DNA from: an uncultured Negativicutes bacterium
Lineage (GTDB): Bacteria > Bacillota > Negativicutes > JBAXTZ01
DNA length: 64,000 bases
Direction: 5' to 3'
Assembly (NCBI GenBank): GCA_963721525.1
Contig: CAVRJL010000008.1
Coordinates: forward strand, 1 to 64,000
The notes beneath the pieces are model-generated. The model was not told the origin of the DNA. It saw nothing but the letters and a program-made list of their open reading frames with translations, and searched no databases. This document shows, in pieces, positions 10,049-61,947 of this stretch. A program made the translations under genes and the position numbers. Each line of letters opens with the position of its first letter. The stretch's first letter is position 1.

Positions 10049-10330
10049 TTAAAAATCAAATTCTAATTGTTCTGGCTTGAAGGTTAGTTTTTTGTAAAGT
10101 TCATATGCTATTTTATTTCTCTTTATGCCTTTAATCGGACAATAATCTGTTACAAGACAATCCCTACATGTTATTATTCTGCTATCTGGACCATAGCATA
10201 ATCCTACTTCATGTCCATGTAGATAATTATCAGAAAGTTTTTTGAGTATTTTTAGTTGTTCTTTCTCTATCTGCTGCTGTTGTTTTGTTGCCATTATATT
10301 TTTAATTAGGAGGGTATTTCTACCCTCCAT
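10049..10330 (-). CDS. Small Cys-rich protein ending in QLEFDF
   Basis: CRDCLVTDYC; ...PEQLEFDF*. Confidence 0.8.
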   Translation of the reverse strand: MEGRNTLLIKNIMATKQQQQIEKEQLKILKKLSDNYLHGHEVGLCYGPDSRIITCRDCLVTDYCPIKGIKRNKIAYELYKKLTFKPEQLEFDF

Positions 10331-10333
10331 ACT

Positions 10334-10570
10334 TCACTTCTTCTTGGAGCTTATGGACTTATTCTTCGGATCGGCGGCGATAGAGCGAGCTATTACGCGA
10401 GCCTTGCGTTGATCGTGAGAAATCTTGGTGGAAGCGGTAGTTCTCGAACCGTTATGCTTTCCTTTCCACGGCTCTACCCTCGCCTGTATCCTGCTGTCCT
10501 CGTGCTTTCTTACCATGACAGCTATTTGAGCTCGGGTGGGAACGGGACCAGTGAAGACGGTGATAGCCAT
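10334..10570 (-). CDS. Small basic protein with GC-rich codon usage
   Basis: GGAGG RBS; preceded by TTGCCA-N17-TATAAT. Confidence 0.75.
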   Translation of the reverse strand: MAITVFTGPVPTRAQIAVMVRKHEDSRIQARVEPWKGKHNGSRTTASTKISHDQRKARVIARSIAADPKNKSISSKKK

Positions 10571-33552: not shown

Positions 33553-34151
33553 CTATTATCCTTTTTTCTGTTTCAAGAAAATCTTTTATATCATACCAAA
33601 AACACCCTTTACAACCAATTTCTTCTGTATAGTTTTCATCACCAAACGTCCAACTAAATATATGATAAAGTGTTTTTGCGTCAAACCTTTTATTTGTTTC
33701 TTTACATTTTTTACAATGTTGTCTTTTATTTTCATTCGCGGGACGACATAATGGTTGGAAATCTTCCAACTTTAAATCTACATCAGGGTATCTTCCATTC
33801 TTATGATCACATTCTATACCCGCTCTTGCTCCAGTTAAAGCACAAGGCAGTTTTATTATTTCGCTATATATTTCTTTACTTGTATCGTGGTTTTGCTTAT
33901 CTTTTCTAAATCCGTTTAATTTTATTTGTCTTATTTGACTTCCAAATCCTTTTATTCTTTTGGTTTCTATTTCAAAATTCACCCATAATGTCATCGCTTT
34001 TTCTCCTCCAAGCGCCGCCATTTTCGGTTAAAAAACCTTTTTCACCTGTTTTTTCTCCTAATTCTTGTAGATCAATCCAATCACTATAACCATTTTTATC
34101 TATACCTACATTATTTATAAATATAGAAGCCAATCTACTTTTACTCAACAT
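33539..34151 (-). pseudogene. IceA1/NlaIII-like HNH restriction endonuclease split by a +1 frameshift
   Basis: 59-codon ORF 34151-33972 (NGYSDW..NGGAWRR..EF*) continues in the +1 frame (EIETKR..IKLNGF..ECDHKNGR..DFQPLC..NENKRQHCKKCKETNKRFDA). Confidence 0.7.
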
Positions 34152-34851
34152 TTGCCCCTAACATTTTTAATCTTAATAATGATTTTTCATAATATTCTTT
34201 ATCTATTTCACAACCAATAAAGTTTCTATTTAATTCGCAACAAGCAACCGCTGTTGTAGCACTACCAGAAAAAAAATCTAAAACTAAATTGTTTTCATTT
34301 GAATGTTTTTTTACAAGTTCTTTTATTAAATTTAATGGTTTTTGTGTTGGATGAAATCTGCCTTTTTCATGGCATATTGGAAAACTATATATTCCATTAT
34401 CATAAGATGAATTAAATGTTGGATTTGATTTTTTTATACCCAAAACGGCTACTTCACGAGAATTGGTAAGATAATTTATTTTGCTGTTAATTGGGACCGG
34501 ATTAGTTTTTATCCACTCTAAAAATCTTATCTGTTTAAATCCTGAACTTACTAAATTATTTTTTAAACTTTCTATCTTCCATAAATCATAAAAACATATT
34601 ATAGTTCCACCATCTTTTAATACTTTATACGATGTGGATAATAATTCTTCAAGTCCAGAAAAATCTTTATCCCAACTTCCAAATTCATAACTCATTTTAA
34701 ATCGTTCTATTGTTTTTTCACCACTGGAAGCTTCAAAACCTGTTTTTCTTGAAATTTCATAAGGAGGATCTATTAGAACTAAATCTATTGTTTTTTCATC
34801 TATTGTCTTTACAAATTCGAGGCAATCTTCATTTTTTAATATTATACTCAC
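34141..34851 (-). CDS. DNA amino-methyltransferase (beta class, N6A/N4C)
   Basis: IDPPY, HPTQKP, VLDFFSGSATT. Confidence 0.9.
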   Translation of the reverse strand: MSIILKNEDCLEFVKTIDEKTIDLVLIDPPYEISRKTGFEASSGEKTIERFKMSYEFGSWDKDFSGLEELLSTSYKVLKDGGTIICFYDLWKIESLKNNLVSSGFKQIRFLEWIKTNPVPINSKINYLTNSREVAVLGIKKSNPTFNSSYDNGIYSFPICHEKGRFHPTQKPLNLIKELVKKHSNENNLVLDFFSGSATTAVACCELNRNFIGCEIDKEYYEKSLLRLKMLGANVE

Positions 34852-45808: not shown

Positions 45809-46522
45809 TCACTCTCCTATTCTTGCTTTAGAAATTTCAAAGTAATCTTTGTCTAATTCTATTCCTGTAAAATCTCTATTTGTTTCTTTACAAACAACTC
45901 CAGTAGTTCCAGTTCCCATAAATGGATCTAGTATTCTATCTTCTTCTTTTGAAAAATTAATAATTATTTTTTCTACAAGTTCTTTTGGAAAGACAGCTCC
46001 GTGGGTATCGGATATTTTTTTTCCTCTTCTTATCTGCCATAAATTTTGTAGCTCTCCTCTATTAAATTGAGCATTGTCAAATTTTCTACTTATGGCGTTT
46101 TTTTCTTCAAAAACTAATAAAACTTCAAAACGAGAATTTAATATTCCATCTCCAATCGCTGGTTGAGCGTTTACTTTATCCCATATTATTATTTCTTTCA
46201 ATACTTCATTGAAATAACCCATTATCTTAAATAATGCTCTTTTATTTCCAGTTAAAAATTGAATATTATAAAAGGTCATTCTGGAAACTCTAAGGCACTC
46301 TTTTATTATTTTTTTATTAAATTCAAAATATTCTTCCATTGGAAGGTTGTCGTCATAATTTTCATATTTGGTAGATAGTTCTTTTACTATTTGCCTTGAG
46401 CAATACTTTCCATTTCTTATTCTTAAATTCATATTATATGGAGGACTTGTTATTACTAAATCAAAAAAATTATTTTGAAACTTAGACAATTCTTCTAATG
46501 AGTTTCCTTTTATTAAATTCAT
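45809..46522 (-). CDS. DNA amino-methyltransferase (beta class, likely N4C)
   Basis: TSPPY, HGAVFP, ILDPFMGTGTT. Confidence 0.9.
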   Translation of the reverse strand: MNLIKGNSLEELSKFQNNFFDLVITSPPYNMNLRIRNGKYCSRQIVKELSTKYENYDDNLPMEEYFEFNKKIIKECLRVSRMTFYNIQFLTGNKRALFKIMGYFNEVLKEIIIWDKVNAQPAIGDGILNSRFEVLLVFEEKNAISRKFDNAQFNRGELQNLWQIRRGKKISDTHGAVFPKELVEKIIINFSKEEDRILDPFMGTGTTGVVCKETNRDFTGIELDKDYFEISKARIGE

Positions 46523-47235
46523 ATTTCCTCCGCTGTTTCATATAATTTACTAGAAATGCCTTTAGCTCCCCTAAAAGCAGTTCCGTGATCGTGACCATCA
46601 GGTCCAACTCTATTGGATAAGTGTATTTTTCCTTCTAATATATTTTCAAAAAATTTATCCGTCGAAACATTTTTATATATTATAGTTTCTCTTATTATTA
46701 TATAATTTTCTATTATGTCTGCTTTTACATAATATTGATTTTTAAGTTTATTTGTTAAATTTTGTTTTATTTGATCATTATCTTGTTCATAAATAATTTC
46801 TTTATTATTAGATTTTACAAATATATTGTTTCTTTCAATATATAATCTTAATCCATGTTCGTTTTCATATGTAGCAAATATATCTATATATCCTGTTCCA
46901 TATTTTTTATGGAAATCAAATTTATCTGGACTTCTCCAATTAGCTATTGGATTCTTTTTGCTTGGGACTCTTATTCCAGCAGAAAGTAATGTATCAGAAG
47001 CATCACTAAATAAATTTTTTGTTTTTAGCTCAGCAAAACCTAAATCTGGAGTTTTATTATTGTTTTCTTTAATTCCTAAATAGTGTTCTACTGTGCTACC
47101 GATTATTCCATCTCCTCCCCTTATTAAGATTTTTATTGGAATTAATAACGGTTTATTTTTGTTTTCTGCTATAAAATCTCTAAAATTTTCTTCTGTTATA
47201 ACTTTTTCTGGATCATTATTTTTCTCTAATAACAT
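46519..47235 (-). CDS. MvaI/BcnI- or MutH-like restriction endonuclease
   Basis: IGSTVEHYLGIKENN..PDLG..ELKT; HDHGTAFR; coupled to the MTase. Confidence 0.7.
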   Translation of the reverse strand: MLLEKNNDPEKVITEENFRDFIAENKNKPLLIPIKILIRGGDGIIGSTVEHYLGIKENNNKTPDLGFAELKTKNLFSDASDTLLSAGIRVPSKKNPIANWRSPDKFDFHKKYGTGYIDIFATYENEHGLRLYIERNNIFVKSNNKEIIYEQDNDQIKQNLTNKLKNQYYVKADIIENYIIIRETIIYKNVSTDKFFENILEGKIHLSNRVGPDGHDHGTAFRGAKGISSKLYETAEEI

Positions 47236-49329: not shown

Positions 49330-50847
49330 TTACCCTAACTTACGAGCCATTCTTTTCTTTTCTTCATCAGAAGAAAATTTCTTTGTTCCAAACAATATAC
49401 TATTTTTATCCGTATCTCTATATAAAGAAAATAGATATACAGTATTAGGAAGTATTTTTTCTTTAATATTTTTCCAATAATTCCAAAATACTGGAACACT
49501 TATATTATTTCCTCTCATATCAGAGCAATCGACAAATGCCATCTCTCTTCCATTTTTATCATTAAAGGCTCTAAATTTTTCAACTATAACGGGAACAGGA
49601 AGTGAAGTTTGAAAATTCGTTATATCTTCAAAATATCTTCCGCATAAACCTTTTCTAAATCCTTGATTTATAACTGTAACCATTTTATCTGTAAACAAAG
49701 TATGAAAGAAATTAAAACCAAGAAATTCTTTTTCATATTGAGCGAGTAACAATCCTGTTGTTTCAAGACCTGGAATTCTATCTGCTTCTGCTTCTATTTT
49801 ATCCCATACATCAACAAGTTTTTCTGCTATTTTTATATTCTTTTTCTTTTCCAAATATTGTTCGAGAATAAATATGTTTTTAGTTCTTTCGCTACCAATA
49901 AGTTCATCAAATGCTCCAACAGAAACCAAAGCATTAATTACTGTTTTTGTTATTCTTTCACCTTTTATTTTATGCATAAAATCGAAAAAAGAAATATATG
50001 GTTGATTATCTACTATTTTTGTAGCAGGAACATCGCCTATACTTTTTACTTCATTTAGCCCAAAACGAATATTGTTTCCTTCTGGATGAAAATGAATTTT
50101 TGATTTATTTATATCAGGAGGAAGAATAGAAAATCCTTGTAGTTTACATAAAGTAAGTTTTTCTTTTAAAGGAGCATCTTCTTTTCCTTTGTAAGTTAAG
50201 ATAGAACTAAAATAATAAACTTTAAAATAAAATGATAAATAAAGATTTATCATAGATATATAAGTATAAGCTACACAATGACTTAAATTAAAAGAATAAG
50301 ATGATAATTTTAATAAATCATCAGCAACAACTTTTGCATCACTTTTTTTTATTCCTTTGCTTACTGCACCATTTTCAAACTTTTTAACAACCTCATCCCA
50401 TCTATCCAAATCTATTTTTTTCTTATCTGCCTTTCCCAAAATTTTCATTAATGCACGAACTTCATTAGTTTCCGAAAGGGTAAAGCCACCAATAATATTA
50501 AATATAGACATACATTGTTCTTGATATATAGCACATCCTGCCGTATCTTTTAAAACTTCTTGAACTTGTTGAGGATATTTATTTATTCCATTATCTCTAC
50601 TATTTAAATAATCATCTACAAAATTAATGGTTCCTGGTCTCGCAAACGCAGAAACTGCACAAACTTCATCAAAATTTTTTGGTTTTATTTTTTTAACAAG
50701 ACCTTCTGCGGTTTGGGCCGATAATTGAAATGTATTTATACTTCTATCTTCATTTAACTCTTCATATAAATTTTTATCAGTTAAATCTAAATCATAAAGA
50801 AAATCTTTTAGTTCTTGCTTTGAAACTTCGCGAACTATCTTAATCAT
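49330..50847 (-). CDS. dnaE: DNA polymerase III alpha, piece 4 (fingers, HhH, OB fold)
   Basis: TFQL, ARPG, IYQEQ, YSFNLSH..AY, ILPPDINKS, IRFGL..VKSIG, KNGREMAF. Confidence 0.9.
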   Translation of the reverse strand: MIKIVREVSKQELKDFLYDLDLTDKNLYEELNEDRSINTFQLSAQTAEGLVKKIKPKNFDEVCAVSAFARPGTINFVDDYLNSRDNGINKYPQQVQEVLKDTAGCAIYQEQCMSIFNIIGGFTLSETNEVRALMKILGKADKKKIDLDRWDEVVKKFENGAVSKGIKKSDAKVVADDLLKLSSYSFNLSHCVAYTYISMINLYLSFYFKVYYFSSILTYKGKEDAPLKEKLTLCKLQGFSILPPDINKSKIHFHPEGNNIRFGLNEVKSIGDVPATKIVDNQPYISFFDFMHKIKGERITKTVINALVSVGAFDELIGSERTKNIFILEQYLEKKKNIKIAEKLVDVWDKIEAEADRIPGLETTGLLLAQYEKEFLGFNFFHTLFTDKMVTVINQGFRKGLCGRYFEDITNFQTSLPVPVIVEKFRAFNDKNGREMAFVDCSDMRGNNISVPVFWNYWKNIKEKILPNTVYLFSLYRDTDKNSILFGTKKFSSDEEKKRMARKLG

Positions 50848-51065
50848 TATCTATTTCCAGTAGTGCTTGTGTTAGGATTCCATAAATTAGTAATAGCAGC
50901 AGTAGTAGTAGTAATATTACTATATGCTATTGTATTTATTGTATAATAGAAGTTAGTATGGTTACTATATATTTTGGTTAATTTACTCATAGCTTCTTTT
51001 GCTAATTGTGCTTTTTCTTCATTGCCATCGAAATCGAATTCTAATTGCCTCGGGTCCCTTTTCAT
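50847..51065 (-). CDS. Small protein with N-terminal RQLEFDF
   Basis: MKRDPRQLEFDFD; stop overlaps the dnaE piece-4 start. Confidence 0.7.
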   Translation of the reverse strand: MKRDPRQLEFDFDGNEEKAQLAKEAMSKLTKIYSNHTNFYYTINTIAYSNITTTTAAITNLWNPNTSTTGNR

Positions 51066-51076
51066 TTATTTCCTTT

Positions 51077-51505
51077 TTATACTATTACCGATATATTATA
51101 ATTTTCACGCTCACCATAATTATTTATTGTAAATGTAATACTTACCCTACTGCCATATAAACTATAATTTCTTTCAATAGTAAAATTTATAATTTTTTCA
51201 GCAACTAAAAAATCAGACATTGCTAATCGCAATCGTTCCATAAATTCATTAATTCTTGTTTCAGTTACTGGAATAAATACAAGTTGACTACGCACAACAT
51301 TTACAGTTTCTTGTATTTGTGCTCTGATTTCAGCATTAGTAAGAGGTCTTTCAAGATTAACATCATAAATAAGTTGCTGATAATAAATAGTGTTATCAAA
51401 AGTTGAAGGAGCCATTGGATACACTTCAGCAATATTTATCCAGAAAGTATCTTTTTTTGGCTTCTCGTCAAAGTCAAATTCCAACTGCCTGTTCTCTTTC
51501 TTCAT
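51077..51505 (-). CDS. Protein with N-terminal RQLEFDF
   Basis: Start MKKENRQLEFDFD after AAGGAG. Confidence 0.7.
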   Translation of the reverse strand: MKKENRQLEFDFDEKPKKDTFWINIAEVYPMAPSTFDNTIYYQQLIYDVNLERPLTNAEIRAQIQETVNVVRSQLVFIPVTETRINEFMERLRLAMSDFLVAEKIINFTIERNYSLYGSRVSITFTINNYGERENYNISVIV

Positions 51506-51851
51506 CTTCAAGCTCCTTATCCCAAACTTTTTCAACTATATTATCATAACTTATAAATTTAGCAATAGTATCACGCTTACGAGACTTCCTTAAAATCTCA
51601 CGTATTCTAAAATCAGAATTAGCCCACATAAAACTAAATATATTTTTATCTGGATTTACTTTCCCTTCTAACACTTTTTTGTATAAGTTTAAACAGCATT
51701 CTTGTGCCATATCTTGGCGTATATCTTCACTACTTATTTTATATTTTTGTGAAAGAAGAAAATCACTTATTTTGTATGCTTCCTTGAATACATAATCCCA
51801 ATTTTCTTTTAGAAATTCTTGCTTCAATTTTATTTTATCTACCGCTAACAT
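51474..51851 (-). CDS. Short sigma-factor-like protein (region 2; T4 gp55-like candidate)
   Basis: EDIRQDMAQECCLNLYK...KNIFSFM...IREILRK. Confidence 0.5.
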   Translation of the reverse strand: MLAVDKIKLKQEFLKENWDYVFKEAYKISDFLLSQKYKISSEDIRQDMAQECCLNLYKKVLEGKVNPDKNIFSFMWANSDFRIREILRKSRKRDTIAKFISYDNIVEKVWDKELEDEEREQAVGI

Positions 51852-51862
51852 TTAATTCCTTA

Positions 51863-52123
51863 TTAATCAGATTTTGGAAAGATTTCTAATAGTGTTGCTA
51901 TATCGCTAAAATCTACCATCAATTTCCCTACCATTATTGCTATCTTTGGTATAGATTGAGCTGGGTCTCCTTCTGTATCAGAACTATTATAAAATATAGT
52001 TTCCAACGCATTGAAATAAGCTTGGCACTCTTCAAACTTACTTTTCACTAACAAAACTTGGTCTTCCCCTTTAATCATTTTTTTCTCCTTACTATTCTTA
52101 TACCATTTATAAAATCTCGTCAA
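51863..52123 (-). CDS. Hypothetical protein (likely start MIKG)
   Basis: AAGGAG before the internal ATG. Confidence 0.6.
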   Translation of the reverse strand: MTRFYKWYKNSKEKKMIKGEDQVLLVKSKFEECQAYFNALETIFYNSSDTEGDPAQSIPKIAIMVGKLMVDFSDIATLLEIFPKSD

Positions 52124-52133
52124 GATAATATAA

Positions 52134-52868
52134 ATGGATAATACAACAAATATCTTGACCGAAAGCCTTTACAATCTTACTTTTTTCAATCGTTTATATA
52201 GATATATAATTTCTGAATATAGTGGGGTTACTATAAAGTCTGGTGAGAGTTTTCAAGCTGAAATTACTAGATATTTCCCAGAACAGCTTATTGTTTTAAA
52301 AGATAAAAATGGAGTTCCTCGGAAAACGCACAAGGTTATATTTGATTATAACTATTCTACAAAACGTAAATCCAGTAAACCTCTCTGTTTTTATTCAGAT
52401 AAAGGTGAAATAGTAATTCAAATAAATGCTGCTGTTACTTTTGACAAGTTGATTAATAATCTTGAATCTCCTACTTTTAAAGATATGCTACGGCACGAAG
52501 TTATCCATGCTATGGATATGTTAAGAAGCACAGAAGCATTAGAAGATGAAGACGTAGATGTAGATAAAAAATCAAAGTCAAAACATCATCAAAGTAAGCA
52601 AGCAGAAACATCTAATTATTGGAAAGATGAATATGAAATGAATCAATTTATTCACACAATGGCTCGGTATAAGACGCAATGGCCTACAAAATATAGTAAA
52701 ATAACAAATTTAGATGATATTTTTGACATTATGGATAGTCCTAAATATGGACTTACTGCTTATAAAAGTACCAAATCAATGAGAAACGACCCGAAGCTTA
52801 GAAAAGAAATTTTGAAACGTTTAGCTCGCGAAAATTTACTTCCGCTTGGGTTACGTTCTAAAATTTAG
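52134..52868 (+). CDS. HExxH protein, paralog of 26931..27566
   Basis: RHEVIHAMD; EMNQ; DPKLRKEILKRLAREN. Confidence 0.8.
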   Translation: MDNTTNILTESLYNLTFFNRLYRYIISEYSGVTIKSGESFQAEITRYFPEQLIVLKDKNGVPRKTHKVIFDYNYSTKRKSSKPLCFYSDKGEIVIQINAAVTFDKLINNLESPTFKDMLRHEVIHAMDMLRSTEALEDEDVDVDKKSKSKHHQSKQAETSNYWKDEYEMNQFIHTMARYKTQWPTKYSKITNLDDIFDIMDSPKYGLTAYKSTKSMRNDPKLRKEILKRLARENLLPLGLRSKI

Positions 52869-53298
52869 CTATTTCTTTATTTAAATAACTTTCAGGAACT
52901 ACCTTGGTCAAACCATCGTTGTCTATTATTAAATACAATTTTTCCGAAATCATTTCTATTGTTTGCTCTATAACGTCTAAAATACTTATTCCCAATATAT
53001 CTATTTTTACAATTCCCATACTTTCCAAAATAGATTCACTTCCACTTTCAGGAAATGCCGTTATAATCTCTCCATTTACTCTATCAACTGGTATATAGTT
53101 ATACAAAGGTTTTGGGGTTATTACTACTCCACCAGCATGAGTTCCACAATTATGAACTAAGACATCATCAACGAAAAAATTTGGTTCATTATTGAAAAAG
53201 TCATTCTCGTTATTTGAAATATCATAGCATTCTTCATAACCTATTTCTATGATTGAACAAACTCTGTCAATTTTAGTTTGTTTATTTTTATTACACAT
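52858..53298 (-). CDS. dnaE: Split intein C-fragment (50 aa) plus DnaE piece 3
   Basis: CYDI..NFFVDDVLVHN|CGTHAGGVVI..VKIDILG (third catalytic Asp). Confidence 0.9.
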   Translation of the reverse strand: MCNKNKQTKIDRVCSIIEIGYEECYDISNNENDFFNNEPNFFVDDVLVHNCGTHAGGVVITPKPLYNYIPVDRVNGEIITAFPESGSESILESMGIVKIDILGISILDVIEQTIEMISEKLYLIIDNDGLTKVVPESYLNKEIAKF

Positions 53299-53407
53299 TT
53301 TTTCCCCTCCTCTAAGCTATCATTGTTATATTTATCTCTATTAAATTTATTATACCTATTATCATTTAATTTTTGTAATATTACTAATAATATTTTTTGA
53401 GGAATGA

Positions 53408-54262
53408 TTATTGTTTTACCATTAGTTTATCACCTATCTTCAAATCTTTCATTTTTTTCATTCCGTCTACTGTAAATAAAATATGCTCGTCAGAAGTTCT
53501 TATTTTTTTTCCACTTTCAAGAGTTATTTCAAATACTTTTTTCTTTCCGCTTTTTATGAGTTCATAGTTTTTTGTATATGATAGATCACCATTTGATCTT
53601 AGATAAAGAATAGCATCCTGTTTATTTAGATCTTCTATTTTTTTCTTTCCGCTAGAAGTATCAACGAGCTGATAATGTGGCAAACACTGTCGTATTTTAC
53701 CTATAAAATAGGGAACCAAATCGAGAACAGTTTTATGTTCTGTATAGAACTGATACTGTGCCGGTGAGGTTTCTTGTATTACTTTTATGTTTTCTTCCCA
53801 TGTCAAATCCTTTTGTAAAAATGAAGTAAACAATTTTGAAACTTTGAAATCTACATTATAAATACGCAATAAATCAGAAGCAGCAGAAGCAGGACCCATT
53901 ATTGAATAAGTTCCAACATGAGCAAAGCAATCAGCACCATATTTTTCTTTCAAATGATTTTGTATTTTTGCCTTACCTTCTGATGACCAGTCAGTATCAA
54001 TATCTGGCAAAGAGAAACTTCCATTTTTTACTTGTATTAAATTAGGTTTTTTATCTATCACTTCGTTGGTAATACCAAGTAAAAATGGTATAATATATCT
54101 CTTATCTATTTTATCTTTTTTTTCAAGAAGTTCTTTGTGAAGGTTTCTACCATTATCATAAAATCTTTTTGCTGCTAACATTTCTCTTTTATATGCTAAT
54201 AGATACTGAGGATATTTTTGTATTTCTTTATCGCAATAATTTTTTAATTCTTCATATGTCAA
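53408..54262 (-). CDS. dnaE: DnaE piece 2 (PDIDTD palm) plus intein N-fragment (92 aa)
   Basis: SLPDIDTDW; GKIRQ|CLP...IRTSDEH...DLKIGD. Confidence 0.9.
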   Translation of the reverse strand: MTYEELKNYCDKEIQKYPQYLLAYKREMLAAKRFYDNGRNLHKELLEKKDKIDKRYIIPFLLGITNEVIDKKPNLIQVKNGSFSLPDIDTDWSSEGKAKIQNHLKEKYGADCFAHVGTYSIMGPASAASDLLRIYNVDFKVSKLFTSFLQKDLTWEENIKVIQETSPAQYQFYTEHKTVLDLVPYFIGKIRQCLPHYQLVDTSSGKKKIEDLNKQDAILYLRSNGDLSYTKNYELIKSGKKKVFEITLESGKKIRTSDEHILFTVDGMKKMKDLKIGDKLMVKQ

Positions 54263-54444
54263 AATTCAAACTCCATTTGTCCTTTTTGTGGTTTTATCAT
54301 ATGTATAAAAAGCTGAAATTCACTTGGTATGACAAATACGTAACCTTTTTCTTGCCAACCTTTTTTAACTAATTCGTATCGTATTTTTGCTAATTCTTCA
54401 TGAGTTTCAGCATGGACAGTTATTTCATATTTCATTGATTTCAC
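54259..54444 (-). CDS. Small protein ending in QMEFEF
   Basis: ...KGQMEFEF*; overlaps the dnaE piece-2 start. Confidence 0.75.
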   Translation of the reverse strand: MKSMKYEITVHAETHEELAKIRYELVKKGWQEKGYVFVIPSEFQLFIHMIKPQKGQMEFEF

Positions 54445-54640
54445 CTAAGGAAATTATTCCAGCAAGCAAACTTGTAAAACATACAATTCTCATTATTCCA
54501 GCAAATCCTGTTGTTCCAAGTATATACAATGGTGTAAAATGTAGCGTCCAAATAAACAAACCGATTGCTCCAAATAGATAACAGCCAATAGCCCATAAAA
54601 TACCAGTTCCAATTCCTCTCAAAACATTTAATAAATTCAT
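54425..54640 (-). CDS. Small membrane protein
   Basis: Two hydrophobic segments. Confidence 0.65.
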   Translation of the reverse strand: MNLLNVLRGIGTGILWAIGCYLFGAIGLFIWTLHFTPLYILGTTGFAGIMRIVCFTSLLAGIISLGEINEI

Positions 54641-55915
54641 TTATTCTCCTTCATTAAAATAATCATAACAAAAATCTATAAGTCTAGCTTGACTGATAAA
54701 TCTTTCAAAAAATAATCCATATTTTATGGGGTCAAGTGTGGTTATTCCTAAGCAAAACACTACTAATGAACCTGAACTTGAACCTCTACCTGTGCTATGA
54801 GTTATTTCATTTTTTTTAGCAAAATCAAATATATCTTCAAGTATTAGTAAGTAACTACAAAAACCTTTTCGTATAATAGTCGAAAGTTCATAAGCAAGTC
54901 TTCTTTTATATTCCAAAGGGCATTCTTCAAAAGGTTTCTTAAAGTAATTAGATAAACCCTCTTTCGCTTTATTTACTAACAATACTTCATCATCATCTGA
55001 TATATTTGGTAATATAATTTTATTTCTTTCTGGTATTTGAAAATCAATTCTATCTGCTATCAATCCCGCATTATTATATATTTCTTCTATAAAATCTTCT
55101 TTATAATTATATCCAAAATCTTTATTGAATTTCTGATAATCAGAAATGTTATGATAGTATAAATGTTTACTTTCAAGTTCAAAAGTTAATTTGTCTATTG
55201 TTGATTTATCTCTAATAGCAATGGAAAGTGTTTGAAGTTTATCCTGCCCTGCTTCTGCGTAATGAACGTCTCCTGTAAGAACTATTGGAACGCCATTACC
55301 TTTCGCTCTATCTATTACCCAATCATTATACTGTGCCTGTCCTCTTTTTAAGGAACCCATCTCACCTGTTAATTCATTTAATTGTATTTCAGCATATAAT
55401 CTGTCTTTAAAAACTTCTAAAAATTTAAAAAACAATTTATCTGCTATTCCATCATAACCACCATTTATTAGTGCTTGAGAAAATGGAGAGCCAAGGCATG
55501 CGGTTCCACAAAATAAACCATTTGAATGCTCGAATAATTCTTCTTTGGTTATTCGTGGAGCATAATAAAAATGTTTATCATCTGCCATTGATAGGTAATT
55601 TAAATAGAGTAGATTTTGATAACCTTCTTTATTTTGCGCTAAAAGAATAACATGCTGATTTTTTGTTCTCTTTCTTTTTTCATCTACTATTGTAACAAGT
55701 TCAGGGGCTATATACATTTCGATTCCTAAAATTGGTTTTATTCCATTTTTTAGACATGCTTGCTGATGACTCCACCACCCATTACATTTTCCATGGTCGG
55801 TAATTGCTAATGATGGATGATTGTATTGTTGTGCTTTTTTAGCATATTCATTTGAACTACCTATTCCATCCAAAATACTATACGTAGTATGAAGATGAAG
55901 CTGCGCGAAACTCAT
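54641..55915 (-). CDS. dnaE: DnaE piece 1 (PHP domain and start of palm)
   Basis: LHLHTTYSILDG, AITDHG, GIEMY, GDVHY, GRGSSSGS, FERF. Confidence 0.9.
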   Translation of the reverse strand: MSFAQLHLHTTYSILDGIGSSNEYAKKAQQYNHPSLAITDHGKCNGWWSHQQACLKNGIKPILGIEMYIAPELVTIVDEKRKRTKNQHVILLAQNKEGYQNLLYLNYLSMADDKHFYYAPRITKEELFEHSNGLFCGTACLGSPFSQALINGGYDGIADKLFFKFLEVFKDRLYAEIQLNELTGEMGSLKRGQAQYNDWVIDRAKGNGVPIVLTGDVHYAEAGQDKLQTLSIAIRDKSTIDKLTFELESKHLYYHNISDYQKFNKDFGYNYKEDFIEEIYNNAGLIADRIDFQIPERNKIILPNISDDDEVLLVNKAKEGLSNYFKKPFEECPLEYKRRLAYELSTIIRKGFCSYLLILEDIFDFAKKNEITHSTGRGSSSGSLVVFCLGITTLDPIKYGLFFERFISQARLIDFCYDYFNEGE

Positions 55916-57972: not shown

Positions 57973-58401
57973 ATGAAACTTGCTGGTGTATTAAATAGTG
58001 CTGATGTGAAAGCACTTATCCCTCAAATAAGTAGTTTAGCCGCGCAAAAAGCACAGCAAGAACAAGCTACTCAGCAAACAGCTCAACAAGCACAAGTAAA
58101 GCAACAGCAAGTTCCAGTTGCGCCGATTCAGCAACCAGTAGCACAAGTTCCAGTAGCTCCCGCTCCTATTCAAGCATCAGTTGATACTTCTGGTAAGTAT
58201 GGCGCTATGCGAAGAGTAAAAAACAATATACAAGAAGGTTTTATACAAAATTATAAAATAGGAAAAGATTTTGTAAAAAAACTAAAAAAGCAAGGGGTTG
58301 ACTTCTCTGATAATGGAGAGTTAATGTCAGCCATAAAGAAAGAACATCCAGAATGGTCTATTTCTGATATAATGGAAATAGTAAAAAAAATTAAAAACTA
58401 A
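57973..58401 (+). CDS. Q/P/A-rich protein sharing segments with 56211..57944
   Basis: QPVAQV and ASVDTS are shared. Confidence 0.7.
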   Translation: MKLAGVLNSADVKALIPQISSLAAQKAQQEQATQQTAQQAQVKQQQVPVAPIQQPVAQVPVAPAPIQASVDTSGKYGAMRRVKNNIQEGFIQNYKIGKDFVKKLKKQGVDFSDNGELMSAIKKEHPEWSISDIMEIVKKIKN

Positions 58402-60500
58402 ATAATTTTACTAAATCCATTTTCGTTTTCTATGTTTATTATATCATCAAAACTATCTTTGATAGCATCTTGATGGGATATAATAAATATTGAAGAGCTA
58501 TCCATACCTTTTATTACTTCTACTACTGAATTGAAACCTTCTTCGTCAAGATTTTGATCTAAAATTTCATCAAAAACAAGTAAGTTAGTATCGGACGAAA
58601 AGAATGTTTTACTTAGAGCATGTAATGCGAATGCTGTGGCAATTTCAATACGAGTTTTACCACCAGCAGAAAATGACTTGAAATTTACTTCTCTATCATC
58701 ATAATTAATTGTCTCATTCAAATCTTTATCAAACTCAACTTTTATTTCTTTGTTGAAGAAAAATGGTAAATAGAAGTTGATACTCTCATTGAAGAAACCT
58801 ATCATCTTACCAATAAAATACTTTTTAAAACCAGCTTCTTTATTAGAAAATAACACTGAAAATATATCATAGTATTTCTTCTCATCGTTTATTTCTTTTA
58901 CTTCTTTTTCTTCAATTGAAAGAATAGATTGAATAGATTTCATTCTTTCTTCGTGTTGTTCTACAAATGTTTTATCATATACATTTTTAGCAGTTTCATC
59001 AATAACATTTATTCTGTTAGTATGCTCTTGAATAAACTTATTTATTGTTTCTTTTCTACTAGAAAGATTAGTAAGAAATTTTCTATCATATTTGGAAGCA
59101 TCTACATCAAACAATTCTCTTCTTAATAAAGAAATAGATTGTGAGGTATTTATATTTGTTCTTTCACTTTCTTCTACTCTTGTTTTTAATATAGATAGTT
59201 CATTGTTTAAAGTATTGAATTTTTCATAAGCACTGGATAATTGTTCTCTTGTATAATATGGAACACTTATTTGTTCTTTTAATAAGTTTATTTTTTCTGA
59301 TATTATTCTGTTTTTTTCTTTATTTTTCTTTATGGTATCTTCTAGCATAGGAATAAAATCAGAAATTTCTTTTATTTCTTTGGAGTAATTTTTTCGTAAC
59401 TCTTCTTTTATGGCATCTTTTATTTCTTGATGGCATACAGGGCATTCTGATTTATCATCTATATTTTCTAAAAATTTAGTTTGCTGCTGTAATTTTTGTT
59501 TATTCTCTTCTAACTGTATTTCCTCTGGCCCTTCATAAGCTTTTGAGTATTCTAATTCTTTTATTTTATTATTTAAATCTTCATATTTATTTATTATATT
59601 AGTTTCTTTATTTATATCAATAGATTTTAATTTCTCTATTTTTTCTAGTAAGTTCATTATTTGAACTTCCATGGTAGAGACATCAATGAGTTTTTGTTTT
59701 TCTGCGTTTATTCTTTGAGTAGTGATAGCATTCTTTTCTAACTTCTCTACGTTAGAGAGTTCATTAGAAACATCTATTTTATCTATTTCTTTTATATCAT
59801 TATTTAACGTTTCAATAGCAAGTAATAATTCAGAACGTTCTGTTTTTAAAGCTGTAAGAGTTGATTTTGCTTTTTCTTTATATTGTTCTATTGTTTGCTT
59901 TATAGTTTCAATACCAACAGTTGCTTTACCTATTTTCTCTTTATGAATAAATAAATTTTCATCAAGTTCTGCTATTATACCTTTTACTTTATCATAATAA
60001 GTTCCTATTTCTCTCAAAGAGAGAACGCTTTCTAACACTTTTAATCTATCTGCCCTTGAAGAACGAAGAAATGATGAATATAATTCTGATGAAAACAAAA
60101 TTGAGTTAGTGAGAGCAATAAATGGAACTTGAATTATATCAAGAATAAGATTTTGTGTATCTGCCATGTTCTTCATTGATAAATTCTTATCACCTTGAAA
60201 AATATAAAGAGCATTACCGTGAATTTCATGAGCCCTATATCTATAGATAGTATAAAGGGCTTCTTGTATCTCTAATTCAACTGAAACTTTACAATTTTTA
60301 TTAGTATTCCAATTTATAACGTCATCAACATTTTCTTGTAAAGATTTTCCATAAAGACACCAAAGAATGGCTTCAAACATAGAGGAATTATGACTAAGTA
60401 TTCCATTAGAAAAATATCTTTTTACTTCATTTACTTGTATATCATAACATGTCTCTTTTTTTTCTAATTTATGTATAGATTTTATTTTTGATAATATCAA
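58398..60500 (-). CDS. sbcC: Split intein C-fragment (38 aa) plus SbcC/Rad50 (gp46-like) main part
   Basis: CYDIQV..YFSNGILSHN|SS; coiled coil with CPVC hook; FSAGG signature; VFDE; ISH. Confidence 0.9.
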   Translation of the reverse strand: MILSKIKSIHKLEKKETCYDIQVNEVKRYFSNGILSHNSSMFEAILWCLYGKSLQENVDDVINWNTNKNCKVSVELEIQEALYTIYRYRAHEIHGNALYIFQGDKNLSMKNMADTQNLILDIIQVPFIALTNSILFSSELYSSFLRSSRADRLKVLESVLSLREIGTYYDKVKGIIAELDENLFIHKEKIGKATVGIETIKQTIEQYKEKAKSTLTALKTERSELLLAIETLNNDIKEIDKIDVSNELSNVEKLEKNAITTQRINAEKQKLIDVSTMEVQIMNLLEKIEKLKSIDINKETNIINKYEDLNNKIKELEYSKAYEGPEEIQLEENKQKLQQQTKFLENIDDKSECPVCHQEIKDAIKEELRKNYSKEIKEISDFIPMLEDTIKKNKEKNRIISEKINLLKEQISVPYYTREQLSSAYEKFNTLNNELSILKTRVEESERTNINTSQSISLLRRELFDVDASKYDRKFLTNLSSRKETINKFIQEHTNRINVIDETAKNVYDKTFVEQHEERMKSIQSILSIEEKEVKEINDEKKYYDIFSVLFSNKEAGFKKYFIGKMIGFFNESINFYLPFFFNKEIKVEFDKDLNETINYDDREVNFKSFSAGGKTRIEIATAFALHALSKTFFSSDTNLLVFDEILDQNLDEEGFNSVVEVIKGMDSSSIFIISHQDAIKDSFDDIINIENENGFSKII

Positions 60501-61485
60501 AAGTTATCTCCTTGTTATTATTGAAAATAAACAATAGATATCCATTATATCCATTATTTTTAGCATACTCTTCTGCTGCTCTTCTTTTACACATATTTGT
60601 TTCTATTTGTAATTTCCAAAAATAAGAACTTTTTACCTCTATCAAGTAGTTATTCAAAACAAAATCTATAAAATATATTTTTACTTTGTTATCATAAGTG
60701 TCAAAATATTCTATATTAGGACCCCTATCTATATTTAAATTATTATCCAAAACCTCTAATAAAAACTTTTTTTCATATGAACTTTCAACATAAATATTGC
60801 CTATTGTTTCTTTTTTGAAATAACCACTTCCGTGATAATTTTTTTTGGTTCTTTCTAATATTTCTTCTTTTGTCAATCTATCCCAAAATTCTTTTGAAAC
60901 TTTTCCAAGAAACTTTGTCTTTTCTTTTTTTTGTTCGTCAGTAAAGTAGTTCCAACCATTTCTTTTTATATTTATTTCTTTTTGTTCTTCTTTCGGTCTG
61001 CTGTGAAAAGTATTTGCTTTTTTTATTGCTATTTCTTTTTTCTTTTCTTCTGATAACGATAATATCAAATTTCTTTGTGTAGTTTTATTTGTTTCTATTC
61101 TTCTTTTACTATACTGTTCTCTCAATAAACTAAATCTACCATTTTTCCAACTTTCTGTTCTTATATCTCCCATAATAGTTTTGTTTAGTTTTTTTAGATT
61201 TCTACTTCTTGAACAGTAAGAACAAACATTTTTATTTTCATCTTTTTTCCTTACATAATAAGAAAAGGCTACATCAAATTTACAACCACATACCAAACAT
61301 TCAATTGTTATTTTTCCACATTTAGAAAATAGTGGTTGTTTAAGTTTATCAATCCAAAGTCCATCACAAAAATCTACAATAGATAAATCATCAATAGTTA
61401 TTCCAAGCTGATTTATTTGTCTAATAAAAAATCTTCTTTTTGTATTTTTATCTTCAATATATTTAGTAAGCTCTTCGTTAGTCAT
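60469..61485 (-). CDS. Free-standing homing endonuclease between the intein halves
   Basis: CxxC..CxxC; ESSYE..YFIDF..IEVKS PD-(D/E)xK motif. Confidence 0.75.
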   Translation of the reverse strand: MTNEELTKYIEDKNTKRRFFIRQINQLGITIDDLSIVDFCDGLWIDKLKQPLFSKCGKITIECLVCGCKFDVAFSYYVRKKDENKNVCSYCSRSRNLKKLNKTIMGDIRTESWKNGRFSLLREQYSKRRIETNKTTQRNLILSLSEEKKKEIAIKKANTFHSRPKEEQKEINIKRNGWNYFTDEQKKEKTKFLGKVSKEFWDRLTKEEILERTKKNYHGSGYFKKETIGNIYVESSYEKKFLLEVLDNNLNIDRGPNIEYFDTYDNKVKIYFIDFVLNNYLIEVKSSYFWKLQIETNMCKRRAAEEYAKNNGYNGYLLFIFNNNKEITFDIIKNKIYT

Positions 61486-61503
61486 AGTAAAAAATGGTTC
61501 CTT

Positions 61504-61947
61504 TTATTTATCATTCTTTACCTTTGCGTCATCACAAACTATCTCATCACTATTACTCAAATCTCTTACAAATACCCATCCTCTTTGCGTCATAACTCTA
61601 TGTTCCCCAGAACATTTCATTTTTTTTCCATTTTCTAATTCAAATTCATACATATCTTGTTCTTCTGTAATGAACATTCCTTCTATAAGTTTCCAACCTT
61701 CATCTGTTTTTACGTGAATTTTGTCTTCAATCAAGTAAATATCATTAGGTAATCCATCTTCTGGAAATAAACTCCCTATTTCTATTATTCCAAATTCTTT
61801 TGTTTCTATCAGCGTATTTTTAGAAACGCATTTACCAATCATATTCTTACCAGACACAAGACGTATTCCTGTATGGTCCAGATTTAAAGTTTGTTCTTCA
61901 TCACCATATGACTTGAAATTTTTCAATGAAATTTTTCTAAATACCAA
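61504..61947 (-). CDS. sbcC: SbcC N-terminal 39 aa plus intein N-fragment (108 aa)
   Basis: LKNFKSY..SGKNMIGK|CVSKNT...KCSGEHRV. Confidence 0.9.
   Translation of the reverse strand: MVFRKISLKNFKSYGDEEQTLNLDHTGIRLVSGKNMIGKCVSKNTLIETKEFGIIEIGSLFPEDGLPNDIYLIEDKIHVKTDEGWKLIEGMFITEEQDMYEFELENGKKMKCSGEHRVMTQRGWVFVRDLSNSDEIVCDDAKVKNDK

Follow-up and report, generated by a model that had tools for sequence, protein, structure and literature searches.

The DnaE polymerase of cyanobacteria is split within the fingers. Its halves are joined into one chain by a split intein (PMC2677866, PMC3919608), and Dassa et al. (2009) described fractured genes that combine split inteins with homing endonucleases, three dnaE loci included (PMC2677866). 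Intein-free fission is reported from Aeh1, in which mobE divides NrdA into NrdA-a and NrdA-b, whose tails are essential for activity (Crona et al., PMC3045599). In group 2.2 jumbo phages, Iyer et al. (2021) found a minimal Pol III alpha whose NTP-binding and Mg2+/template-binding proteins are separate and lie beside a PolB (PMC7824862). In the literature searched (main text of mostly open papers) no three-subunit, full-length DnaE was found, and none was seen in passages of PMC12926913, PMC11348598 and PMC3919608. Here we analyse a dnaE locus in a stretch of 64,000 nucleotides (nt), hereafter the window, taken from the very start of an 83-kb contig (CAVRJL010000008.1, assembly GCA_963721525.1) from a 769-kb bin. 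The gene is distributed over four open reading frames (ORFs) which, compared with related loci, reveal a real and conserved three-subunit architecture (A, B and C). It is proposed that A, B and C assemble without covalent joining into one polymerase, likely a phage replicase, and that the window's B, encoded by two genes, is likely restored by trans-splicing; judged from the sequences and structure models, this reading has a probability of roughly 0.78.

The four ORFs reported in a preliminary description made from the sequence alone are all present, on the minus strand (Table 1). Between them they contain a PHP domain, palm, thumb, fingers and HhH region in DnaE order, with the Pol-beta-like palm and the three catalytic Asp residues (DxD plus KxD) of the C family. 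Profiles built from the clade map to positions 6-408 (A), 395-574 (B) and 589 onward (C) of Escherichia coli alpha, so the set is complete and the catalytic-strand region is present twice (overlap 395-408). The OB part of C is assigned from one source, profile coverage of the Taq and Mycobacterium tuberculosis chains to residues ~1081-1102, there being no Pfam OB match. The PHP site and GRGS are on A, all three catalytic Asp residues on B, and the fingers, HhH and OB regions on C. GRGS, which binds the dNTP triphosphate, was found in 25 of 26 A proteins, and an Asp at the D403-equivalent position in none of the 25 A tails parsed (26 examined). From the alignment of B to Taq alpha it follows that its three Asp residues should be the catalytic ones, given the biochemistry of the aligned residues; these Asp columns are invariant in 121 B proteins. 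All nine PHP metal ligands occur in 23/23 aligned A proteins, which conform to the motif HHDHEH[C/H]DH as defined in PMC12926913.

Searches together with the window yielded 76 sequences, and removal of 11 duplicates and 12 distant PolC-like sequences left 53 loci; these were retrieved with patterns based on B, so the counts hold for this clade only. Both intein-less breaks are common to the clade. The A-B junction, visible in 37 loci, is split in 33 and fused in four; the B-C junction, likewise visible in 37, is split in 36 and fused in one; and among the 32 of 53 loci in which both can be seen, 29 are three-piece, two AB+C and one ABC. In L004 and L005 the counterparts of the two window B genes form one intein-free ORF and the other two breaks are kept; the window's N-extein is 62% and 49% identical to these two B proteins. 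A search with the intein-free B gave 173 homologues among proteins of 158-506 amino acids (aa); the best 120 of the 173 are 283-325 aa long and have invariant DxDxD, HAGG and KxD columns. Gaps range from -4 to 4147 nt between A and B and from 7 to 7892 nt between B and C, the shortest including -4, 7, 26 and 36 nt, and their lengths represent all three reading frames. In the 208-kb record G002, B lies at ~113.4 kb on the plus strand, ~84 kb from A and C (197.5-201.0 kb, minus strand). Each piece has a single locus copy in 4/4 records, and the ratio of nonsynonymous to synonymous substitution rates (dN/dS) in seven pairs of relatives is 0.06-0.29 for A, B, C and the B head (0.09-0.29 for the head), indicating purifying selection. 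Separately, two metagenome loci (L044, L050) have a break in A at about profile positions 208-230, through a frameshift or a further split.

With the single-chain DnaE of E. coli (2HNH/5FKU), Thermus aquaticus (2HPI/3E0D) and M. tuberculosis (5LEW/7PU7), the phage enzyme shares domain order, PHP ligands, GRGS, the three Asp residues, and profile and fold matches; it differs in having three chains, a duplicated palm segment, an extra hairpin module and no recognisable clamp motif. The module of Iyer et al. (PMC7824862), compared by its description, likewise belongs to T4-like jumbo phages and is split as in the A|B division, with GRGS on A and DxD on B. That module has none of the other Pol III domains and occurs together with a PolB, whereas the enzyme of this clade is full-length, is broken at a second point and has a duplicated head, and PolB was found in 0/5 of our genomes or records, the records being incomplete. 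The fractured genes of Dassa et al. (PMC2677866) match the junction between the two B genes, the IntN-HNH-IntC arrangement of L026 and the layout of a Rad50-like gene in the window, but account for only one of the three junctions, and the cyanobacterial DnaE, although also joined by a split intein, gives one chain and is cut at a different site (PMC2677866, PMC3919608). Aeh1 NrdA (PMC3045599) is likewise an essential phage enzyme divided by a nuclease gene without an intein; it is, however, another enzyme, and its tails come from the insertion, whereas the appendage at A|B is a duplicate of the polymerase's own palm.

Modelled alone, B reaches a predicted local distance difference test score (pLDDT) of 90 and a predicted template modelling score (pTM) of 0.55, and matches DnaE structures. 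A multimer prediction with A, C(1-285) and B of L004 scored 0.83, against 0.54 for the best of three controls, which retained chain C; in calibration this mark was reached by 116 of 157 solved and two of 215 mismatched pairs. At least 95% of contacts agree between runs and partner pLDDT is at least 86. The confident interface comprises A 410-422, parts of B 28-60 and 70-87, B 263-285 and C 1-24 (L004 numbering), segments that for the most part are not covered by the profile matches to solved chains. Because the halves of a split gene may pass simply by resembling solved DnaE, the model supports binding and does not show it. Taken together, the clade-wide breaks, the intein-free B of relatives and the complex model support a three-chain enzyme, in agreement with the heterotrimer after trans-splicing suggested by the preliminary description. 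In the proposed mechanism one active site would be built from three chains, and appendages at each break would add docking surface: at A|B, the non-catalytic strand copy of A and the duplicated helical head of B; at B|C, the hairpin tail of B and the first strand and helix of C. A palm-internal duplication would likely have provided a tolerant linker, into which a homing-endonuclease or other gene could insert, cutting the gene without loss.

The ~85-residue head of B is likely a duplicate of a palm segment. It resembles the palm helices without GRGS, as suggested by an indirect profile link and a fold search. The link runs through heads of two-piece forms: three-piece against two-piece heads gave a probability of 97% (score 60, shuffle maximum 34), and two-piece heads against the canonical palm 98% (score 78, shuffle maximum 53), with ~10 residues deleted over GRGS. 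A search of 1.84 billion entries returned distant proteins, many of 800-940 aa, in which a head of similar type stands at the start and PHP and GRGS are missing; in two records checked, one of them 100% complete, such a protein lies beside a separate A, and the first ~98 positions of PF07733 are matched twice; a third record shows further breaks. The head-only model (pLDDT 84) placed C-family polymerases as the top six of 48,161 chains (Z 4.4-6.5, root mean square deviation 3.9-4.2, 80-84 residues aligned), and the Atlas gave a weak lead toward the same origin (score 0.90, 133 shared features). Longer fused proteins sought with the head alone were not found, which is weak evidence; fusions turned up in other searches. 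The start of the second piece had been described as a decayed copy of the end of the first; the duplicate origin stands, but the head is conserved and under purifying selection, not decaying, and the proposed register against the A tail is reproduced by hhalign without reaching significance (probability 2%; one of 30 shuffles scored higher).

As to the order of events, two proteins of 607 and 614 aa (P0136 and P0294, known as proteins) show the A-B junction in its canonical form; they stop at the B|C break, where they bear a hairpin tail of similar kind. In two trees (100/95, inner 88/82, L020 having been dropped; and 97, inner 90) the clade has them as its sister group, a position which favours B|C fission first. 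A single A|B fission is rejected by the approximately unbiased test (p-AU 4e-49), and one origin for two- and three-piece heads is weakly rejected (p-AU 0.016; LG+G4, two two-piece rows only). Two-piece forms are scattered on a short tree, from which a motif filter had removed 15 of 105 rows, and fused and split forms alternate between close relatives: L022 is fused, and L023 and L028, 78-87% identical to it in DNA, hold a nuclease-like gene in the linker. A 595-kb phage (L094, LR756511.1) encodes an unsplit DnaE of 1183 codons, 40% identical to the two-piece protein P0246, and is a possible outgroup of that lineage.

Several points weigh against the three-chain reading and its details. The complex may score by likeness to solved single-chain DnaE; it was also a three-chain job, unlike the pairwise calibration, and used proteins of the relative L004, not of the window. 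In several pairs dS is close to saturation. Direct comparison of the head is weak (probability 6.5% against the canonical palm, 2% against the A tail), the bridging two-piece set was chosen with a profile that includes the head, and a Z below 8 for a helical bundle can arise by chance. The proposed order of events is tentative, since the test does not reject nesting of the unduplicated sister pair (p-AU 0.38). The searches turned up no clamp motif, clamp or loader, an oddity if the enzyme is a replicase, and completeness of the four records searched for other polymerases is 54-88%.

The QxxLF motif said to be absent from the fourth piece is indeed not at its expected place, presumably after the HhH region, and none of this type was seen there by eye in 20 of 25 C proteins (region printed in full). 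Beta clamp, gp45 and loader were not found in four phage records, where divergent clamps would escape; the beta clamp and loader families matched only bacterial contigs, and gp45 was found in 0/5. The three QLEFDF/QMEFEF ORFs noticed beside the pieces exist, but being confined to the window and its two closest relatives (L042, L043) they do not bear out the suggestion that they supply clamp contact in trans; the conserved 86-aa gap protein is an accessory-factor candidate. The missing clamp motif, clamp and loader, the incompleteness of the records and the auxiliary role that Iyer et al. propose for the minimal split module (PMC7824862) would fit a real three-chain enzyme confined to repair, recombination or one strand, with bulk replication by the host Pol III or an unrecognised polymerase. 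We consider this unlikely, given the full domain set with intact PHP ligands, a setting among primase, DnaB, gp32-like SSB (single-stranded DNA-binding protein) and Mre11/Rad50 genes, and the failure to find PolA or PolB (each 0/5 genomes or records).

By its sequence the split intein is an ordinary add-on to the three-subunit architecture, with intact splicing residues. IntN starts with Cys1 after RQ and has the block-B His; the His-Asn end of IntC precedes CGTHAGG, whose Cys is the +1 nucleophile; and the register RQ|CGTHAGG is that of intein-free relatives. L026 carries an allelic IntN/IntC pair (IntC E-value 8e-11) with an HNH gene between the halves; in the window a 109-nt spacer stands there, with no free-standing endonuclease gene. 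The intein likely splices B back together. That it no longer does so, its halves merely associating to give a four-chain enzyme, is less likely again than an auxiliary role: IntN barely exceeds the Pfam Intein_splicing cut-off (36.1 against 35.8 bits), IntC has no Pfam match, the nuclease gene is missing and dead intein-like tails occur at DnaE breaks of other phages (L102-L104), but Cys1, the block-B His, the terminal His-Asn and Cys+1 are there, the halves are oppositely charged (IntN 19 basic/13 acidic, IntC 4/10) and splicing would restore the exact register of relatives beside HAGG. L102-L104 are distant phages whose DnaE is cut immediately ahead of PDxD; their A has an IntN-like tail (probability 15-50%), and a duplicated head is absent. 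No support was obtained for deriving the B tail and C head from dead inteins: these very short segments scored 10.9 against IntN (shuffle maximum 16.5) and 6.1 against a three-sequence IntC profile (shuffle maximum 10.3), respectively. An Atlas search of the natural junction returned DnaE-type clusters only.

Other insertions mark the dnaE gene as an insertion hotspot. More split inteins with nuclease genes lie inside C or A in L014 (11510-14320), L018 (12719-15529) and L027 (3259-6010), and longer insertions in C (L008, L009, L013, L027) and A (L015, L041, L048) are probably cis-inteins. B is interrupted just before the DxD strand by ~200-230-nt insertions in L018 (~10267-10468), L021 (~10252-10453) and L027 (~10249-10475), which by eye resemble group I introns; Rfam missed the one tested. 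Outside dnaE, the window has a Rad50/gp46-like fractured gene (58398-61947, minus strand) consisting of an N part with IntN (61504-61947), a 338-aa endonuclease-like ORF and IntC with a C part (58398-60500), and in L090 (13498-15636, minus strand) a 712-aa ORF with an intein and an HNH domain adjoins a gp32-like gene.

Joining of the pieces into one chain by introns, trans-splicing or bypassing is very improbable. The natural fusions (L013, L020, L022, L029) do keep all appendages in frame, and group-I-like introns do occur inside B of clade members; Rfam reported nothing at gathering score in the window and chance matches only in the gaps, a negative that is uninformative and cannot exclude introns, because the positive control, the apparent group I intron of L018, was missed too. 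A blastn search of the window with two such introns gave nothing significant. However, gaps of -4 to 36 nt are too short for an intron, long gaps contain whole genes, some on the opposite strand, B of G002 is ~84 kb off on the other strand, and gap lengths fall in all three frames, with seven stops in the window's A-to-B frame. A decaying pseudogene or assembly artefact, for which a single assembly and the other DnaE and PolC genes of the bin could be cited, is scarcely credible, since identical breaks recur in dozens of independent contigs, purifying selection and invariant catalytic residues contradict the decay that the preliminary description had allowed for, the other polymerases lie on other contigs, and a search of 30 relatives of the binned bacterium did not find the B head.

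The contig is read as a fragment of a T4-like jumbo phage, not of a cell. By Pfam and PHROG its products include numerous nucleases, a primase, a helicase of DnaB type, a gp32-like SSB and Mre11/Rad50-like proteins. The DnaE and PolC-like genes of the bin are separate from it, on other contigs, and the 30 bacterial relatives searched yielded no B head. Related records are IMG/VR contigs of 126-208 kb, 54-88% complete, with a gp23 capsid gene in 3/4. The clade carrying the three-piece dnaE consists of uncultured T4-like jumbo phages; among cultured phages, 0/571 and 0/746 matching records cover 80% of B. Bin membership does not prove the host. The bin's own DnaE (L002; G000:C15, ~134400-137100) appears as two ORFs of 745 and 169 aa in the stretch examined, possibly through a frameshift or assembly error.

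The window gaps measure 378 nt (A-B, two ORFs), 109 nt (between the intein halves, no ORF of at least 50 aa) and 2010 nt (B-C, five ORFs, one on the opposite strand). The genes in the intein-less gaps were initially regarded as unrelated. This agrees with gap 1, where other loci have different genes, but not with the 86-aa and 125-aa genes of gap 2, whose recurrence across the clade shows that they are not random cargo. The 125-aa protein is likely a minimal sigma-70-type factor, to judge from weak, sub-cut-off matches to TIGR02937 in 16 of 28 family members. A promoter scan was uninformative (20 sites against 41.5 in shuffles).

Table 1. Features of the dnaE locus, in window positions.
Feature	Position	Strand	Content	Basis or occurrence
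Subunit A	54641..55915	-	424 aa; PHP, palm helices with GRGS, non-catalytic copy of the catalytic strand at the end	Pfam/PHROG; Pfam PHP E-value 3e-38, DNA_pol3_alpha positions 3-98
GRGS motif, A residues 376-379	54779..54790	-		sequence
Pseudo-catalytic strand R411-F420 of A	54656..54685	-	no Asp at E. coli D403 equivalent	
Gap 1 cargo	54259..54640	-	two ORFs	not clade-conserved
71-aa ORF, gap 1	54425-54640	-	hydrophobic	phmmer matches in 3 loci
61-aa ORF, gap 1	54259-54444	-	C-terminal QMEFEF	phmmer matches in 1 locus
B N-terminal ORF	53408-54262	-	284 aa	Pfam DNA_pol3_alpha positions 100-209, Intein_splicing
Subunit B head, residues 1-82	54017..54262	-	degenerate palm-helix duplicate without GRGS loop	
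Subunit B N-extein, residues 1-192	53687..54262	-	PDIDTD (D87, D89)	
IntN, 92 aa	53408..53686	-	Cys1, block-B S-x-x-H	
Spacer between intein halves, 109 nt	53299..53407	.		HNH gene at same place in L026
B C-terminal ORF	52858-53298	-	146 aa	Pfam DNA_pol3_alpha positions 207-260
IntC, 50 aa	53149..53298	-	His-Asn end, then Cys+1	
Subunit B C-extein	52858..53148	-	HAGG; third catalytic Asp in KIDILG (D100 of ORF)	
B hairpin-helix tail, ~28 residues	about 52858-52944	-	C-terminal end of C-extein	conserved
244-aa ORF, gap 2	52134..52868	+		homologues in 5 loci
86-aa ORF, gap 2	51863..52123	-		conserved; B-C gap in 33/37 loci
125-aa ORF, gap 2	51474..51851	-		conserved; B-C gap in 33/37 loci
152-aa and 72-aa ORFs	50847..51535	-	QLEFDF motifs	homologues only in L042, L043
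Subunit C	49330..50847	-	505 aa; conserved ~20-residue head, fingers, HhH, OB region	Pfam finger and HHH_6

Elsewhere in the window, positions 1-28000 have a higher and variable GC content (up to 0.50) and few long ORFs, with a tRNA-Cys at 1131-1217. An N6/N4 methyltransferase adjoins an MvaI/BcnI-like endonuclease at 45809-47235 (minus strand), possibly as a phage restriction-modification pair, and a second methyltransferase lies at 34141-34851 (minus strand).

A broader scenario, which must be called doubtful, would have the clade replicate with a heterotrimeric C-family polymerase, one active site being formed from three chains, and no sliding clamp. Its relatives would preserve a succession from palm|fingers fission, through duplication with reciprocal motif loss, to reversible cutting by homing endonucleases, and the catalytic subunit would be encoded by an independent gene, able to move and perhaps to be regulated or exchanged alone. 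Whether genes split by duplication and reciprocal degeneration can be tested directly on the near-identical fused and split pairs formed by L022 with L023 and L028, together with the unduplicated sister form (P0136, P0294). With the subunits separate, nucleotide binding, metal binding and proofreading can be studied chain by chain, and the locus is a source of a new split intein; annotation pipelines would label these genes fragments or pseudogenes. If the three-chain model holds, a C-family replicase tolerates cuts at two points of its catalytic core without losing function, and the appendages at the breaks would be natural docking elements.

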